Shown here: piece after piece, positions 11,315-19,055 of the stretch
Layout of the letters: each line of letters starts with the position of its first letter
Position numbering within the stretch: position 1 is the stretch's first letter
Assembly (NCBI GenBank): GCA_965207455.1
Contig: CBDBMJ010000001.1
Location: forward strand, 992,001-1,056,000
Reading direction: 5' to 3'
DNA: 64,000 nucleotides
Source of the DNA: Bdellovibrionota bacterium
GTDB taxonomy: Bacteria > Bdellovibrionota > UBA1018 > CAIPTA01 > JAALKR01
Notes under the pieces: model-generated
Database searches by the model: none
What the model was told of the DNA's origin: nothing
The model's input: only the letters and a program-made list of their open reading frames with translations
Program-made: the position numbers and the translations under genes

Positions 11315-13090
11315 ATGAAGAAAAAAAATCTATTCAGCGGTGTTTTAGTTTTAATCCTAACCCTACTAATCCTACCCAACTGCACAAAAAAACCAGTAGA
11401 GACAGGTAAAGTACTCAACCTCGTAGTAACAGCGAAGCTCAAAGGCTTGGATCCAGCTTTTGCCTCAGACCTATACTCCTCCACAGAAGTGAATCGAGTA
11501 TACGAATCCTTATTCCAATACCATTATTTGAAAAGACCCTACGTTCTCGTTCCTCTACTTGCTCAGTCCATGCCAAAAATTTCAAAAGATAAACTTACCT
11601 ATACAATCAACGTCCGCAAGAACGTATTTTTTCATAACGACCCTGCATTTCCACAGGGAAAGGGACGGGAACTGGTAGCAAAAGATTTTATCTATAGTCT
11701 TATGCGCATCGCCGACCCCAATCTTCACTCCACAGGCTGGTGGATTTTAGAAAATCGAATACAGGGCCTAGATAAGTGGAGAGAAGAAATGAAAGCAGCA
11801 CAAACTACAGATTACTCTAAGGGGGTATCTGGTCTCCGGCTTTTGGGAAAATATACTCTAAAAATTAAACTTAAAGATCCCTACCCACAACTATTAAATA
11901 TTTTAGCCATGCCTTATACCTCAGCAGTACCCGAAGAAGTTGTGAATAAATACGGACCTGAGTTTATTAACCATGCCATTGGCACTGGTCCATTTATCCT
12001 AAAGTTTTTCAAACCTTCCGAACAAGTAATTTATGAAAAAAATCCCATCTATTGGGGACATTACCCAAAGGATGGAGGAAAAGAAGACAGAGCCAATGGA
12101 TTACTCGCCGACGCAGGGAAATCCCTTCCTCTCGTAGACAAAGTAAAAGTTCGTGTGATTGTGGAGAGCCAACCGCGATGGATGCACTTTTTAAATTCAG
12201 AACTGGACATAGTGGCTGTTCCTAAAGATAACTTTAGTGATGCCATTACTCCCAACCTCACGCTCACGAAGAAATTTAAAGAGAAAAATATTCGTCTCTC
12301 CATCCTACCGTCATTGGATATAGCCTATACATCCTTTAACTTGGAGTCTGAGGAAATTCCCCAGTTTCGAAACAAGCGGGTACGTCGAGCAATCTCCATT
12401 GCTCTTTCCTCAGAGTCGGAACGTTTTATTAAGATTTTCTATAACGGTTTTGCCATAAAAGCCCAAACACCCATCCCCCCTGGAATTACCGGCTACCGGT
12501 CCGACTACCTCAACCCATATAAAAGAGGAGGTCTACAACGTGCTAAAAAAATGCTTGCCGATGCGGGATATCCCAACGGTAAGGGCATACCTGTGATTCC
12601 TTTTGATATTGTGAGTAGCACTAACTCCCGTCAAATAGCGGAATTTCAAATAAGAATCCTAGAAAAACTGGGACTGAAATTTAAACTTATAGCCAGTACA
12701 TGGCCCGAATTCCAAAAACGAATCCAACGAAGACAAACTCATTTCTGGAGTGTAGCTTGGGCAGCCGATTACCCCGATGCGGAAAATTTCCTGCAACTCT
12801 TCTATGGAAAAAATGCTCAACCCGGCGGAATGAACGGTTCCTACTATAAGAATAAAAATTTCGACCGTATCTTTACAAAAGCCCGGAAAATGCAAGACTC
12901 CTCTCGACGAACACGACTCTATGAAAAACTATCCCGAATAATTTCCAGTGACGTGCCCGTTATACTCAACGTACACAGGAAAAATGTGGTCCTAATACAA
13001 CCATATTTAAAAAATTACAAGCACAGTGAGTTTCCCGTGAATGTGGCAAAGTACCTAGATGTGGAAAAAGATATGAAGAGAGGTCTTTAA
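11315..13090 (+). CDS. oppA: Peptide ABC transporter substrate-binding lipoprotein (family 5)
   Basis: Lipobox-like LPNC; LDPA, YESL, GTGPF, WAADYPD. Confidence 0.88.
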   Translation: MKKKNLFSGVLVLILTLLILPNCTKKPVETGKVLNLVVTAKLKGLDPAFASDLYSSTEVNRVYESLFQYHYLKRPYVLVPLLAQSMPKISKDKLTYTINVRKNVFFHNDPAFPQGKGRELVAKDFIYSLMRIADPNLHSTGWWILENRIQGLDKWREEMKAAQTTDYSKGVSGLRLLGKYTLKIKLKDPYPQLLNILAMPYTSAVPEEVVNKYGPEFINHAIGTGPFILKFFKPSEQVIYEKNPIYWGHYPKDGGKEDRANGLLADAGKSLPLVDKVKVRVIVESQPRWMHFLNSELDIVAVPKDNFSDAITPNLTLTKKFKEKNIRLSILPSLDIAYTSFNLESEEIPQFRNKRVRRAISIALSSESERFIKIFYNGFAIKAQTPIPPGITGYRSDYLNPYKRGGLQRAKKMLADAGYPNGKGIPVIPFDIVSSTNSRQIAEFQIRILEKLGLKFKLIASTWPEFQKRIQRRQTHFWSVAWAADYPDAENFLQLFYGKNAQPGGMNGSYYKNKNFDRIFTKARKMQDSSRRTRLYEKLSRIISSDVPVILNVHRKNVVLIQPYLKNYKHSEFPVNVAKYLDVEKDMKRGL

Positions 13091-13105
13091 AACTAAGAGG
13101 AAAAA

Positions 13106-14041
13106 ATGTTTGCATATATAGTACGAAGATCCATGTACACAATACCTATCCTTTTAGGTATTGCCCTTGTCACGTTTCTTCTCTTCAACGTAGCCGCCGG
13201 TGACCCTGCTTTAATGATATTGGGCAAACACGCAGATGCACAATCTATCCAAGAAATGCGCATACAGTTGGGTCTGGACCGGCCTCTCATCGTTCAATTC
13301 TGGGATACGGTTGTACAAATGTTTACCTTCGACTTTGGTCGCTCCTACTATACCAAACAAGTGATTTCACAAATGCTCTCCTCTGCTGCTGTTGTCTCCC
13401 TAACCCTCACCGTTCCCGCATTTATCCTATTGATTCTAATTGCCCTAGTTATCTCCCTTTTCGTAGCCTTCTGGCGAGGTACTAAAATTGATAAAACCCT
13501 AGTGGTCTTCTGTGTAATGGGAATCTCCATTCCCTCGTTAAGCTATATTCTCTTTGGTCAAAATATCCTTGCCTACCAATTCCAACTTTTTCCTATTTCT
13601 GGGTATTCACGATACTTTCCCGAAATGTATATCTACCTAGCCCTCCCCATCCTTATATGGATAACTGGAAGTATAGGATCGGAAGTCCGATTTTATAGAA
13701 CGGTCCTACTGGACGTGAGCAACCAGGACTATGTGCGAACTGCACGAGCAAAAGGCCTAAGCGAGACACTGGTGATGGCCAAACATGTATTGAAAAATGC
13801 AATGATCCCCATCATCACACGAACCGTAATTATCATACCCAACTTAATACTGGGCTCCCTATTGTTAGAGAATTTTTTTAGTATTCCCGGTATGGGCAGC
13901 ATGCTCATTGATGCCATCAATACGGGCGACTTCCCCGTGGCACGTGCCATTGTAATGGTGATCTCCGTTTTATACGTTGCCTTTAACCTACTGACCGATA
14001 TTTGCTACACCATTGTCGACCCAAGGATATCTCTCCGATGA
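13106..14041 (+). CDS. oppB: Peptide ABC transporter permease
   Basis: LGLDRP; DYVRTARAKGL EAA loop; DPRI end. Confidence 0.9.
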   Translation: MFAYIVRRSMYTIPILLGIALVTFLLFNVAAGDPALMILGKHADAQSIQEMRIQLGLDRPLIVQFWDTVVQMFTFDFGRSYYTKQVISQMLSSAAVVSLTLTVPAFILLILIALVISLFVAFWRGTKIDKTLVVFCVMGISIPSLSYILFGQNILAYQFQLFPISGYSRYFPEMYIYLALPILIWITGSIGSEVRFYRTVLLDVSNQDYVRTARAKGLSETLVMAKHVLKNAMIPIITRTVIIIPNLILGSLLLENFFSIPGMGSMLIDAINTGDFPVARAIVMVISVLYVAFNLLTDICYTIVDPRISLR

Positions 14042-14928
14042 GCGCCCTAGCCCAAAACAAAAAAGCCACAAACGCACAGGGAGTATCCCTATGGCAAGAC
14101 GCCTGGAAACGACTAAAAAGGGACCGACTGGCCATCGCTAGCCTCCTTACTATCATCTTTTACTGCTTCATTGCCATCTTCACACAAATTGACTTTCTCA
14201 TGACCGACTGGAAAATAGAAGTAGCCGAAAGCTATGCAAGACCCAGCCTTTCCTCCTGGACACTATGGTTTGGAGCCGACATATTTGGACGCAGCGTATT
14301 ATTAAAAACTATTATGGGTGCCTATGTATCCATGTCTGTGGCTATCTACTCCAGCCTTATTGCCATCCCCTTGGGTGTAATGTTTGGAGCAACTGCCGGG
14401 TATTTCGGTGGATGGATAGATGAGATCATCACTTGGTTCTATACAACCCTATCGAATATTCCCTATATACTCCTGCTCATCTCCCTAACCTATATTATGG
14501 ATAAGGGAATTACCTCCATGTCCTTAGCCTTGGGGGTTACAAGCTGGGTTACAACATGTCGTCTGATCCGGGGAGAATTTATCAAACACAAGGAAAGAGA
14601 ATATGTACAAGCAGCTAAAAGCCTAGGTGCAAGCTCAAAGCGGCAGATTTTTATCCATATTCTCCCAAATGTTAGCCATATTATCATTATCCAAGTGTCT
14701 TTTCTGTGCATTTCGGCTATCTTAGCAGAGGTGGTTTTGAGTTATCTGGGTCTAGGTGTCCAGGGGCTGCCCAGTTGGGGAACAATGATTGATGAAGCAA
14801 AATTAGAGTTAGCTCGTGGCGTATGGTGGCAACTGGTGGCAGCCACAGGTTTTATCTTTTTAATTGCCCTGGCATTGAATATACTAGGAGATGCATTGAG
14901 AGACTGTTTGGATCCGAAACTCCGTTGA
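14038..14928 (+). CDS. oppC: Peptide ABC transporter permease
   Basis: FGADIFGR; EYVQAAKSLGAS; GDALRDCLDPK; ATGA overlap with oppB. Confidence 0.9.
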   Translation: MSALAQNKKATNAQGVSLWQDAWKRLKRDRLAIASLLTIIFYCFIAIFTQIDFLMTDWKIEVAESYARPSLSSWTLWFGADIFGRSVLLKTIMGAYVSMSVAIYSSLIAIPLGVMFGATAGYFGGWIDEIITWFYTTLSNIPYILLLISLTYIMDKGITSMSLALGVTSWVTTCRLIRGEFIKHKEREYVQAAKSLGASSKRQIFIHILPNVSHIIIIQVSFLCISAILAEVVLSYLGLGVQGLPSWGTMIDEAKLELARGVWWQLVAATGFIFLIALALNILGDALRDCLDPKLR

Positions 14929-14944
14929 TAAAAGTTGATACAAT

Positions 14945-15943
14945 ATGAATGTTTTAGAAGTAAAAAATTTAAAAACCAGCTTTTGCCTAGAAGATAAGCA
15001 ATGGGTAACTGCCGTCAATGATATCTCTTTTTCTGTGCCTAAAGGAAAAACAATTGGCATAGTGGGAGAAAGTGGCTGTGGTAAATCCGTTACTGCCCTT
15101 TCTATTATGCGCTTAATTGCAGATCCACCCGGGAAAATCACCGGAGGAGAGATATTTTTTCAAGGAACAAACCTCCTAAACCTTTCCAACCAAGAAATGC
15201 GCAAAATTCGAGGAAATAAAATTTCCATGATATTCCAAGAACCCATGACATCCCTCAATCCCGTCTTCACCATTGGCAACCAAATTATGGAAAGTATTAT
15301 CCTTCACCAAAAGGTTTCTCGAAGTGAAGCCAAGAAAAAAGCCATTGATATGCTACATCTTGTGGGCATTTCTTCTGCCGATACGCGTGTGGAAGAATAC
15401 CCCCACCAACTCTCAGGAGGAATGCGCCAGCGGGTGATGATTGCAATGGCACTGTCGTGTAACCCCACCCTATTAATCGCCGATGAACCCACCACCGCTC
15501 TGGATGTTACTATCCAAGCCCAAATTTTAGATCTTATTGCTGGTTTACAAAAAAAATTAGGCATGGCTGTTTTACTTATCACCCATGACTTGGGGGTTGT
15601 GGCCGAGGTATGTGATTATGTGGTAGTAATGTACGCAGGAAAAGTTGTGGAGCATGGAAATGTGGACGACATTTTTCTCAACACCGCTCACCCGTACACA
15701 AAGGGTTTGTTAAATTCCCTGCCATCCATTACTGGAATAAAACAAAAAAAACGATTACAAACAATCCCTGGGATTGTGCCAGACCTATTGTCTCTGCCCC
15801 CTGGCTGCTCTTTTAACGACCGCTGCACTCGTCGAAAAGAACATTGTTCTAAGGATACTCCTAGTTTACGTCCCATACTCTCCTCTACCCATCAAGCCTC
15901 CTGCTTTAATCCTTACAAAAAAAATGAGGCAATAGATCCATGA
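14945..15943 (+). CDS. oppD: Peptide ABC transporter ATPase
   Basis: [23 protein letters not shown]-terminal Cys cluster. Confidence 0.92.
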
Positions 15944-16932
15944 CACCAGCAAATCCCAACGAAAATTTACTGGTAGTAAGAAATTTATCAAAATTTTTTC
16001 CCATTCATGCTGGCATTCTCCGTCGAGAGGTAGCGTCCGTAACTGCTGTTTCAGACGTGAGCTTTTCCATCAAACGAGGAGAAACATTGGGGCTGGTGGG
16101 AGAAAGTGGTTGTGGAAAGTCCACACTGGGTCGCTGTATTTTACGCCTCCTAGACCCCTCTGCTGGAGAAGTCTGGTTCAATGGACAGAATATTTTAAAC
16201 TATAACGCTAAAGAAATGCGACGAATCCGTCAAAAGATGCAAATTATTTTTCAAGACCCGTTTGCCTCCCTAAACCCTAGAATGATGGTGAGCTCAGTCC
16301 TAGAAGAACCCATTCGTATTCATAAGCTTATGAAACACTCGGCTGATGTGAATAAACGCTCCTTAAAACTATTGGACCTTTGTGGCCTACATTCCAGCGC
16401 CATGAACCGCTATCCCCATGAGTTCAGCGGCGGTCAACGCCAGCGAATTTGCATCGCCCGTTCCTTAGCTGTGGAACCAGAATTTATTATTTGCGACGAA
16501 CCCGTATCTGCCCTAGACGTTTCCATCCAAGCCCAAATTGTAAACCTATTGCAGGATTTACAGGAAGAATTGAACTTAACCTATCTATTTATTGCCCACG
16601 ATCTACAAGTAATAGAACATATCTCTAACCGCGTTGCCGTAATGTATTTAGGAAAAATAGTGGAAATTGCCGAAGCAGATACACTCTATGCACAACCCAA
16701 ACACCCCTATACGGAAGCATTATTTTCAGCTATTCCCGTTCCCGATCCTCATTATAAAAAGAAACGAATTATTTTAGAGGGCGATGTGCCCAGCCCCATC
16801 TCTCTTCCCAGTGGCTGCTCCTTTCATCCACGCTGCCATCATGTAATGAGCAATTGCTCTAAAGATCGACCATTACTAAAGGAAGTGGCAAAAGATCACC
16901 ACACAGCTTGCTGGCTACACCCCGGCAGTTAG
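15940..16932 (+). CDS. oppF: Peptide ABC transporter ATPase
   Basis: [26 protein letters not shown]. Confidence 0.92.
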
Positions 16933-17025
16933 AGAAACAAATTTTGTACATTAGAATAAAAATTTATGGATACAATAGAAAGGAATCAGAAAGAAAAAGA
17001 ATAAAATCATAAAAAATAATAAAAT

Positions 17026-17439
17026 GCGATCGTGGTGGAATTGGTAGACACGCCAGATTTAGAATACAACCTGGACCTTTATGGAGAAACCCATAAAGTG
17101 GACACTCCTAATTCGGGGAAACCTTACTGGACCTTTTTTTATGGCCCACTGGCAATCCCGAGCTAGCAAAGAGCAAAAAATGTATGGCTTCTCAAAGCCT
17201 CCATTATAACTCTTGGGCAAGTGTAGAGACTGTACAGAGTGCACCTAAAACTTTTCTTTTTTTTTATTCCATAAAAGAAAAGAAACGGTGAAGAGACAGT
17301 CCAGACTACAAACACATTTCTCTTCTCCCTCCTATTTTCATAAATAGCGAAAGATCAGAAACGTGGCAGTGAAAACTGTAGTTAGAGAGAGGATCTGGTG
17401 CCGCAAGGTGTGAGAGTTCGAGTCTCTCCGATCGCACCA
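17026..17439 (+). tRNA. tRNA-Leu(UAG), intron-containing (exons 17026-17060 and 17390-17439)
   Basis: Spliced 85-nt cloverleaf: acceptor GCGATCG/CGATCGC with ACCA end, anticodon arm CCAGA-TTT|AGGA-TCTGG, long variable arm, GTTCGAG T-loop. Confidence 0.95.
17061..17389 (+). ncRNA. Group I self-splicing intron (IC3-like), no ORF
   Basis: Follows exon U and ends in G. P2 ctttatgg/ccataaag; P3 cactc/gagtg; P aattcggggaa; Q aatcccgagc; P7 gactgt/acagtc within R tagagactgta and S aagagacagtcc; P9 GAAA loop. Confidence 0.92.
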
Positions 17440-17613
17440 ACTCGCAATGCATTATCTTTCCCAAAAAAACGGACACTTTTACACAAAAATAAATGAAGAA
17501 AACAGTTTTTTCTAATTCACAGGCTTTTGCAAAAAATTAGACATGAAAGCAAGTTAATAGATACACGACTTCTTATATTCTAAATAAGAAGTTTAACCCA
17601 TCAGAGCAATTTT

Positions 17614-18900
17614 TTATGGAGTTTCTACTGGAAAAGCTGGAATTGAAATAGCTATGGTGCTGCAAAAAACGCTACCACATTTGCTAAGTGTAGAAAAGCC
17701 TAGCTGGTTATAAGTGTTACTTCCCCAGCATTTTATATTTCCACTATTTAAAAGTACGCAGGAGTGAGCAATTCCAAAAGCAATTTGACTTACATCATTT
17801 AAATCAAAAACATCAACTGGTATTAAACTATCTGTGGTGCTATTATTACCCAATTCTCCATAATTATTATTTCCCCAGCACTTCACAGTACCTGCTTCAT
17901 TGATACCAGTGGTGTTGGTATCATCAACTAGAGCTGCGCAGGTGTAACTTCCTCCCAAAGCAATTTGACTTACACCACTTAAACCCGAAACATCCACTGA
18001 TGTTGGACTATTTGTGGTGCTATTGTTGCCCAACTGCCCAGAACTATTAGATCCCCAGCATTTCACTGTTTTATCCTCTAAAATTGCACAGGAGTGTATA
18101 CCATTCAAGTCGATTTTACTTACATTGCTTAAATCCAGAGGAGGAACGGTATCACTAGGATCAGGATCAGGAAGCTTAACAGCAACTGGTGTTAAACTTT
18201 GTGTTGTACTATTATTACCCAACTGCCCAGAACTATTATATCCCCAGCATTTCACTGTTTTATCATTTAAAACTGCGCAACTGTGATACCTTCCTAAGGA
18301 AATTTGACTTATACCACTTAAACTTGAAATATCAATTGGTACTGGACTCTGTGTTGTACTATTATTACCCAGTTGCCCATAACCATTATATCCCCAGCAC
18401 TTTACAGCTCCAGTACTTAAACGTGCGCAGCCGTGAGAATCTCCTAAAGAAATTTGACTTACATCGCTTAAACCAGAAACATCAACCGGTGTTGAACTCT
18501 GTTCTGTAGTATTATTACCCAATTGCCCATAAACATTATCTCCCCAGCATTTCACTGTTTTATCATTTAAAACTGCACAGGAGTGCTGGTACCCTAAGGA
18601 AATTTGACTTACACCACTTAAACCCGAAACATCAACTGGTGTTAAACTATTATTATCGCTTTCACCATTACCCAACTGACCCTTCCCATTATTTCCCCAG
18701 CATTTCACACTGCCATCATTTAAAACTGCGCAGGTGTGATAATACCCTAAAGCAATTTGTCTAACGTCTTTTGGATTTCCTGTTAGCACACTCTCTTCTT
18801 CAAGAATTACCTCTTCTCCACCACACCCAATCAGTGCAATCATGAAAAAAAAAGCTGTATATATATTTTTTCTAAAAAGTAATACTTTTAATAAATGCAT
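17614..18900 (-). CDS. RCC1/BLIP-II repeat beta-propeller lipoprotein
   Basis: About 7 repeats of HxCAxLxDxTVKCWGxNxxGQLG; lipobox ALIGC. Confidence 0.9.
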   Translation of the reverse strand: MHLLKVLLFRKNIYTAFFFMIALIGCGGEEVILEEESVLTGNPKDVRQIALGYYHTCAVLNDGSVKCWGNNGKGQLGNGESDNNSLTPVDVSGLSGVSQISLGYQHSCAVLNDKTVKCWGDNVYGQLGNNTTEQSSTPVDVSGLSDVSQISLGDSHGCARLSTGAVKCWGYNGYGQLGNNSTTQSPVPIDISSLSGISQISLGRYHSCAVLNDKTVKCWGYNSSGQLGNNSTTQSLTPVAVKLPDPDPSDTVPPLDLSNVSKIDLNGIHSCAILEDKTVKCWGSNSSGQLGNNSTTNSPTSVDVSGLSGVSQIALGGSYTCAALVDDTNTTGINEAGTVKCWGNNNYGELGNNSTTDSLIPVDVFDLNDVSQIAFGIAHSCVLLNSGNIKCWGSNTYNQLGFSTLSKCGSVFCSTIAISIPAFPVETP

Positions 18901-19055
18901 TTGTAAATATCCTTTGTTTATAACTACCCTTTCGGAACATAGTGGCAATCCATTAATGAAAAATGAATTAAAAAAATTAAAGGTTAAAAAAGCAGGTTTT
19001 TTAAAGAGTGATTTTAAAACATGTATTAGGCTTGAAAGTAATCTTAATGCTTTAA

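Follow-up and report, generated by a model that had tools for sequence, protein, structure and literature searches.

Group I introns that interrupt bacterial transfer RNA (tRNA) genes have been recognized in a widening range of hosts. In the survey of Williams 2020 (bioRxiv 10.1101/2020.01.27.920355), which combined sub-threshold Rfam matches with ARAGORN, the number of intron-interrupted tRNA settings rose from 4 to 21, with 80,413 bacterial genomes yielding 5292 tRNA genes split by group I introns, and the leucine settings named in its running text are Leu.3Ug and Leu.3Cg only. The closest described systems are the tRNA-Leu(UAA) introns of the Leu.3Ug class, which lie between positions 34 and 35, follow a U, end in G and have a compact core, and the introns of Azoarcus pre-tRNA-Ile(CAU), of tRNA-Arg(CCU) and of the formylmethionine tRNA (fMet), for which the subgroup name IC3 is adopted here from the same survey (Williams 2020; PMC13168695). 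Leu(UAA), fMet and Ile2 genes hidden by introns are described in PMC2686568 and PMC8450103, and no paper on a bacterial Leu(UAG) group I intron was found in the open-access literature searched. Here we describe a stretch of 64,000 nucleotides (nt; the window) from the chromosome of an uncultured Bdellovibrionota bacterium (GCA_965207455.1, contig CBDBMJ010000001.1, positions 992,001 to 1,056,000), in which positions 17026-17439 of the plus strand read as a class II tRNA-Leu(UAG) gene in two parts. Between U34 and A35 this resident, single-copy gene very probably holds a genuine and most likely active group I intron, of the compact type known from bacterial tRNA genes and without an open reading frame (ORF).

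The split gene escapes default tools, as a first-pass annotation of the stretch had anticipated: ARAGORN at default settings calls no tRNA anywhere in the 64-kb window, and Rfam at gathering thresholds returns no match. With its intron option, ARAGORN reports a tRNA-Leu(tag) with an intron of 329 nt, and the computationally joined exons are called as an 85-nt tRNA-Leu(tag) with the 7-nt anticodon loop UUUAGGA at the junction, so that the joined product has the predicted Leu(UAG) anticodon. When an E-value threshold is used instead, the full RF00028 model (Intron_gpI) aligns to 17050-17323 with a score of 42.1 bits (E 2.4e-9 in the window, 2.1e-9 genome-wide), well beyond chance. The 329-nt insertion at U|AG that the first-pass annotation had proposed is in this way borne out by the ARAGORN intron call, by RF00028 and by the family alignment considered below. 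The sole ORF of at least 60 amino acids inside the intron is a 61-amino-acid antisense frame with no Pfam match, and no endonuclease ORF of the kind carried by mobile introns was found.

The intron contains the core of a group I ribozyme (Table 1), with a P4-P6 domain and a P3-P7-P8 domain joined in the P3/P7 pseudoknot. P1 is formed by A17055-U17078, G17056-C17077, U17058-A17075, U17059.G17074, U17060.G17073 at the splice site, A17061-U17072 and G17062-C17071, and in the family alignment G17073 sits in the column that pairs with the base before the 5' splice site. Group I ribozymes bind guanosine in P7, at a G-C pair beside a bulged A. The corresponding elements here are G17226-C17302, the bulged A17227 and G17228-C17301, in columns that are invariant in 28/28 aligned sequences. 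Because G17389 occupies the terminal-G column of the family, the junction is fixed independently at U34|A35. P1 with U.G at the splice site and a single A-C mismatch, the CCU/AGG pairing of P10 and the terminal G all stand as they had initially been read. The P3 and P9.0 helices are given from direct reading, and the MAFFT alignment shifts their register by one column. Peculiar to this copy, according to sub-folds, are the P5a extension, the long P6 extension, the A/U-rich P8 helix and a P9a that is larger by about 40 nt and bears an extra hairpin.

Table 1. Features of the split tRNA-Leu(UAG) gene and its intron, in window coordinates
Feature	Positions	Strand	Description	Basis
5' exon	17026..17060	+	35 nt; acceptor strand GCGAUCG, D arm, anticodon stem strand CCAGA, U32 U33 U34; 3' end ...CCAGAUUU	sequence reading; ARAGORN intron option; colinear with relatives' uninterrupted 85-nt tRNA-Leu(UAG)
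Group I intron	17061..17389	+	329 nt, without protein-coding gene; last base G17389	RF00028; alignment with 27 tRNA group I introns
P1	17055..17078	+	17055-17062 (5' exon end and first two intron bases) with internal guide 17071-17078; 8-nt loop; 7/8 positions paired	sequence; Rfam alignment
P10 guide CCU	17070..17072	+	U17072/C17071/C17070 can pair with A17390/G17391/G17392 (AGG)	sequence reading; pairing inferred
P2 hairpin	17079..17096	+	6 base pairs (bp), 17079-84 with 17091-96; loop AGAAAC including GAAA	6/7 family pairs formed; family P2 covaries at 7/7 pairs
P3 5' strand	17103..17107	+	CACUC with GAGUG 17237-17241, 5 bp	sequence reading; family P3 covaries at 6/6 pairs
J3/4, P4, P5, P5a extension	17110..17162	+	P4 17113-18 with 17156-61; P5 17122-23 with 17151-52; P5a 17128-33 with 17143-48	P4 4/4 and P5 2/2 family pairs; sub-fold
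P6 with long extension	17166..17218	+	inner hairpin 17186-90 with 17195-99	sub-fold; G17166/C17218 in place of family A/A column pair
J6/7, P7 5' strand, P3 3' strand	17221..17241	+	G17226, bulged A17227, G17228-G17232	GUAGAGACU invariant in 28/28 sequences; P7 6/6 pairs
P8	17242..17290	+	base CACC 17242-45 with GGUG 17287-90; long A/U-rich 10-bp helix 17251-60 with 17273-82	base 4/4 pairs; sub-fold
J8/7 (AAGAGA) and P7 3' strand (C17297-C17302)	17291..17302	+	GAAGA.A.AGUCCAGAC block as in family	block is part of the collecting pattern, not independent
P9 domain	17306..17388	+	P9.0 CUAC 17306-09 with GUUAG 17381-85, 4 bp and one bulge; P9a 17313-21 with 17357-65, extra hairpin 17332-37/17342-47; P9 hairpin 17367-70 with 17375-78, GAAA loop	P9 4/4 family pairs
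Terminal G (omega G)	17389	+		same alignment column as terminal G of family members with an 11-nt tail after P9
3' exon	17390..17439	+	50 nt; opens AGGAUCUGG; A35 G36 G37 A38, stem strand UCUGG, long variable arm, T arm, acceptor strand, A73, CCA encoded	sequence reading; ARAGORN; relatives

This anatomy suggests a model of how the tRNA may mature, in which the mechanism would be the standard two-step, guanosine-initiated splicing reaction. The split gene would yield a precursor transcript of about 414 nt, the intron of which would fold into its P3-P9 core, while P1, with its wobble pair U17060.G17073, would form between the guide at 17071-17078 and the last bases of the 5' exon. Free guanosine held in P7 would attack after U17060, whereupon G17389 would occupy the guanosine site and P10 (CCU with AGG) would position the 3' exon, and exon joining would release an 85-nt tRNA with the anticodon loop UU-UAG-GA. 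Folding of the precursor may involve some competition, as the guide bases CUGG at 17071-17074 are the same letters as the anticodon-stem strand of the 3' exon, so that the 5' exon strand CCAG (17053-17056) can pair with either the intron or the 3' exon. The pairing of CCAG with the guide, an alternative to P1, is the minimum-energy fold of the isolated segment, and competing folds around 17053-17056 are thus possible in the precursor.

The assignment to the bacterial tRNA intron family was made against 27 bacterial tRNA group I introns aligned with this intron (n=28), 24 of which had been collected by a pattern of two conserved blocks. The collecting pattern contained the GUAGAGACU, CACCUAAA and GGUGAAGA.A.AGUCCAGAC blocks, so a match there is in part a product of the selection; this does not apply to the helices or to the remaining blocks. 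Across all 28 introns 45 columns are invariant, and of 90 highly conserved columns 83 show the consensus base in this intron. The seven deviations comprise the host-specific guide, the closing pair of P2, the first base of J3/4, one pair of P6 (A/A to G-C) and a compensatory pair of P9.0 (U17307/A17384 against C-G in the family), and none falls in P7 or the centre of J8/7. The secondary structure of the family is itself strongly supported by covariation: 92.7% of 1222 cells hold a pair, compared with 71.0% after shuffling (0/500 shuffles reach the observed value) and 29-42% with slid partners, and both sides change in 32 of 44 family pairs when P7 is written as a pseudoknot. By its letters, then, the intron is a well-preserved, ORF-less copy of the compact bacterial tRNA-intron type, a known mobile family.

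Contigs of two public runs from two studies, compared over 16700-17700, bear on whether the intron is real and how it has been maintained. In one run (X1, record 2) a 411-nt contig covers 17033-17443 and spans both junctions with 0 differences, which argues that the split gene is not an assembly artefact. In the other (X2, record 13) a 381-nt contig over 17033-17427 carries 19 substitutions and 6 indels (16 nt), and this diverged relative, in which both junctions are likewise spanned, keeps the intron. Its exons show 0 changes; of the 19 substitutions, 4 are in the 192 intron positions aligned with the family and 15 in the 137 positions of the periphery (Fisher p 0.0012), and the 90 conserved columns have 0 substitutions and the aligned core 0 indels. 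The change C17145>U converts the mismatch A17131xC17145 to an A-U pair in P5a, A17236>G forms with C17108 the sixth P3 pair of the family, and indels have reshaped the tip of the P8 helix. Such a pattern of substitution is that predicted for a ribozyme under selection. That 329 nt were mis-joined into a tRNA gene during assembly could be suspected, given a metagenome-type assembly as the source and tRNA exons that are common to many organisms in the same samples, whose contigs join 17060 to 17390 directly. However, with the junctions spanned in two independent studies and an intron guide complementary to this particular anticodon arm, the probability of a chimera is negligible. The joints of 17060 to 17390 in the run contigs were also considered as spliced RNA and this was ruled out, as they belong to other, more abundant organisms with an uninterrupted tRNA-Leu(UAG); one contig with this joint runs into unlike sequence inside the acceptor stem.

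The split gene appears to be required for decoding. The genome (2.38 Mb in 3 contigs, 40% G+C) has 33 uninterrupted tRNAs by ARAGORN, with the leucine anticodons gag, caa and taa, and the check for an uninterrupted Leu(UAG) gene that the first-pass annotation had proposed found no tag or cag tRNA among these 33. A second group I intron, 248 nt long and matched by RF00028 at 106.8 bits, lies outside the window (G000:C1:1515437-1515772; locus L001, 1476-1800) in a gene that reads as tRNA-Ile2(CAU), cut after CAU, and that the ARAGORN intron option miscalls as Gln(ctg). The 33 uninterrupted and two split genes make 35, and the anticodon set is complete and non-redundant only if the Leu(UAG) gene is counted. 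Across 576 ORFs of at least 400 codons, CUA and CUG account for 14.7% and 9.4% of leucine codons, about 24% together. The cell therefore needs the split gene, the only one found for these codons, unless a copy lies on unassembled DNA.

Several points weigh against an active intron in a sole Leu(UAG) gene. The score of 42.1 bits lies below the curated Rfam gathering score of 50, so that a default Rfam scan reports nothing; Williams 2020 quotes a cut-off of 40 bits for an older RF00028 model. P1 carries the mismatch A17057xC17076 and two U.G pairs in succession, A.C takes the place of the family's G-C in closing the P2 loop, and the sixth P3 pair of the family is absent here (C17108 x A17236). 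None of the three runs listed with this DNA is on record as RNA. With an estimated completeness of 94.7%, a second Leu(UAG) or Leu(CAG) gene could be present on unassembled DNA, and the one genome of the same family (G001, 88% complete) is uninformative, as BLAST with the 414 nt matched only its Leu(UAA) gene and the intact Leu(UAG) gene of a relative, used as query, matched nothing. The low score and the mismatches, together with the incomplete genome, might suggest that the split gene is a pseudogene with a decaying intron and that CUA and CUG are read by a tRNA from outside the assembly. However, the exons are intact and are unchanged in the X2 relative, the substitutions avoid the ribozyme core, the tRNA complement is complete and non-redundant only with this gene, and the share of leucine codons that require Leu(UAG) is large, which together make a relic very improbable. 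Splicing of the Leu(UAG) precursor is very likely, judging from the anatomy and from the conservation of the core in the diverged relative.

As to the host, tRNA-Leu(UAG) is rare and non-classical, yet it is not unique. The RF00028 search of 149 relatives found no other Leu(UAG) intron, nor did a junction-pattern search of 400 further genomes of the phylum, in which six genomes matched but the match lay at a tRNA in this genome alone; a reversed control pattern matched about 12 genomes, so the rest are no more than expected by chance. There was also no other Leu(UAG) host in 80 subfamily loci examined from at least 117 stretches that match the two-block pattern in one-genome-per-species contigs. 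The earlier suspicion that this host is unusual for the lineage thus holds in all three sets. In a metagenome collection, the junction pattern for 3' exons that begin AGGA found four stretches, three of which (L165/L167/L168) are of one phage-like type, in which the ribozyme adjoins a Leu(UAG) 3' exon and is preceded by an antisense ORF. Two viral contigs carry complete examples: IMGVR_UViG_3300005965_000002 (258,580 nt; L175, 1421-4481) has a tRNA-Leu(tag) with a 792-nt intron at U34|A35, and IMGVR_UViG_3300049048_000052 (251,780 nt; L182) has a tRNA-Leu(tag) with a 798-nt intron at the same site. In both, the first approximately 530 nt of the intron hold an opposite-strand ORF that starts beside the ribozyme and has an N-terminus resembling a helix-turn-helix by eye. 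The picture of four classic hosts, Leu(UAA), fMet(CAU), Ile(CAU) and Arg(CCU), from which the first-pass annotation had started, is outdated since the 21 settings of Williams 2020, and the viral contigs have Leu(UAG) split at the same site.

The viral introns raise the question of whether the bacterial intron was derived from them, in that a Leu(UAG) intron of very large phages, with an antisense endonuclease-like ORF, could have homed into the bacterial gene and lost the ORF later. The two viral contigs of about 250 kb share with the bacterial locus the host tRNA species and the insertion site, their introns likewise start with AG and share AGUCCAGACUACAA, and a clade that joins the bacterial intron to them is not rejected by the approximately unbiased (AU) test (p 0.37). 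However, the phage introns place an ORF between the 5' exon and the ribozyme, whereas the chromosomal intron contains no remnant of one, and identity is only 56% over 203 aligned core columns. Further, the phage ribozymes appear, by reading, to lack the P2 hairpin and to have a different P4 sequence, and a scan of the viral collection for the long-P9a form gave 0 matches. A phage origin is accordingly quite improbable.

The exons indicate where the intron was inserted. Joined, they are 86% identical to the Leu(UAG) of relatives and 65% identical to the genome's own 89-nt Leu(UAA), and the Leu(UAG) gene is uninterrupted in 20 relatives, five of the same order among them, which indicates that the intron was inserted into a resident Leu(UAG) gene. 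The same values rule out that a change of anticodon turned a Leu(UAA) gene into this one. In a BLAST search of 60 relatives with the 414 nt as query, matches were confined to positions 1-57 and 365-414, the exons and at most 22 adjoining intron bases, with nothing at 58-364. In a maximum-likelihood tree of 43-44 intron sequences, this intron stands on a long branch (0.74-0.77) with no supported sister; the nearest rows are Thr(UGU) introns of gammaproteobacterial metagenome-assembled genomes (MAGs), and core identity to family members ranges over 54-73%. This lineage probably acquired the intron through the lateral spread of a promiscuous family that moves between anticodon loops.

A more specific origin, raised in the first-pass annotation as a transfer between isoacceptors, would have a tRNA-Leu(UAA) intron moving to the Leu(UAG) gene by reverse splicing or recombination at U34|A35, with subsequent re-tuning of the guide. 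The insertion site is indeed that of Leu(UAA) introns in the same phylum (G110, G023 and G092, and also MAGs of Bdellovibrio or Pseudobdellovibrionaceae), the P9 architecture, in which a P9 hairpin with a GAAA loop is followed by a short tail to the terminal G, is alike, and this and the AGUCCAGAC..CAAAC block are common to Leu(UAA) and fMet introns. The guide is fitted to this anticodon arm, with its AGAUUU exon end, by a U-A pair in place of the C-G of Leu(UAA) introns at the third base before the splice site. However, the shared 34|35 site is weak evidence of descent, because a U is required before the splice site. The host here is UAG, with G36, G37, an 85-nt tRNA and another variable arm, and not the UAA anticodon that defines the Leu.3Ug class; P8 and P9a are much larger, and at 329 nt the intron is longer than the Leu(UAA) members examined (205-272 nt). 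Phylogenetically, no specific tie to Leu(UAA) introns was found: besides the long branch without a supported sister and with Thr(UGU) introns nearest, core identity is only 54-61% to the Leu(UAA) introns of the phylum but reaches 73% with one Thr(UGU) intron and 69% with one Arg(CCU) intron. A clade with the phylum's four Leu(UAA) introns is neither favoured nor rejected (AU p 0.29), and one with all 16 Leu(UAA) rows gives an AU p of 0.023, though these rows are scattered over the tree. The same subfamily also occupies Arg, Thr, Lys, Ser, Ile, fMet and Leu(CAA) genes, so that any of these hosts could have been the donor. Of the proposed link, the shared position stands, and the isoacceptor transfer, with descent from a Leu(UAA) intron, is possible but rather unlikely. 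A copy of the genome's own Ile(CAU) intron was ruled out by alignment and tree: that intron is of the Azoarcus type, differs in the P9 region and is distant in the tree. Further, although the Ile, Arg and fMet introns belong to the same ribozyme family and also lie in the anticodon loop, the first two are inserted after position 36 and the last after U33, in contrast to 34|35 here.

The breadth of hosts is apparent from both searches. Among the 80 loci are Arg(CCU) in Bartonella, Leu(UAA), Leu(CAA), Thr(UGU), Thr(GGU), Lys(UUU), Ser(UGA), Ile(UAU) and fMet. RF00028 over 150 genomes (this one and 149 relatives) gave 16 matches in 14 genomes, with hosts assigned by ARAGORN and reading as Ile(CAU) (3), fMet (4), Asn(GUU) (2), Leu(UAA) (3), Leu(UAG) (1, this intron), 23S ribosomal RNA (rRNA) (1) and unclear (2). 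The tRNA-Asn(GUU) genes of two genomes of the phylum, a host outside the four classical ones, are split by group I introns apparently at U35/U36 (L033, G139:C12; L037, G140:C138). In Pseudomonadota the same subfamily is present in tRNAs Ile(UAU)-like, Lys(UUU), Thr(GGU), Ser(UGA) and Thr(UGU) (L062, L102, L112, L113 (Roseobacteraceae), L109, L116, L127, L049/L051/L071/L075), and a nearly identical Arg(CCU) intron is common to about 30 Bartonella species among the matches listed. Bacteroidota Leu(UAA) introns of Prevotellaceae, Spirosoma and related MAGs (L084, L091, L094, L101, L126) carry, upstream of the ribozyme core, an ORF with what by eye is an HNH-like Cys/His motif, and their genes receive no ARAGORN call. 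In a genome of the same class, a weak RF00028 match (L043, G022:C1:1382808-1383018) lies beside 23S rRNA-like sequence with an ORF before it. Another group I ribozyme core, on a metagenome contig (L166), lies among protein-coding, phage-like sequence; its 3' flank opens AGGAAAAAG and is not a tRNA. Around the split gene itself, a five-gene peptide transporter operon of the Opp/Dpp ATP-binding cassette type lies upstream (window 11315-16932, plus strand; SBP_bac_5 and two ABC_tran + oligo_HPY ATPases) and a convergent gene for an RCC1-repeat beta-propeller protein downstream (17614-18948, minus strand). The latter has no ortholog at the same place in 4 relatives, so it offers no synteny.

It is tempting to consider whether the intron has a role. 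Both intron-hidden tRNAs are sole decoders whose maturation would depend on a guanosine cofactor, from which it could be proposed that splicing acts as a gate that ties translation of CUA/CUG, by Leu(UAG), and of AUA, by Ile(CAU), to the guanosine pool or growth phase of a predatory bacterium, the intron being kept for this role and not as a neutral passenger; we regard this as highly unlikely. A milder reading is that the locus may represent an independent host switch of the intron family, the guide of which is already re-tuned to the new anticodon arm. More immediately, two of the 35 tRNA genes, each a sole decoder, are invisible to default ARAGORN and, according to PMC8450103, to tRNAscan-SE, so that the tRNA sets of such MAGs look incomplete although they are complete; a sub-threshold Rfam match followed by an intron-tolerant tRNA search offers a route to their recovery. 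The compact ribozyme, with its unusual A/U-rich P8 and P9a extensions, may also be usable for splicing studies. The phenomenon is in general that catalogued by Williams 2020, namely group-I-split bacterial tRNA genes, and involves no new kind of mechanism; its value lies mainly in annotation and in one data point on the switching of tRNA-intron hosts. To a promiscuous family found otherwise in Arg, Thr, Lys, Ser, Ile, fMet, Asn, Leu(UAA) and Leu(CAA) genes, the locus adds a Leu(UAG) host on a bacterial chromosome.

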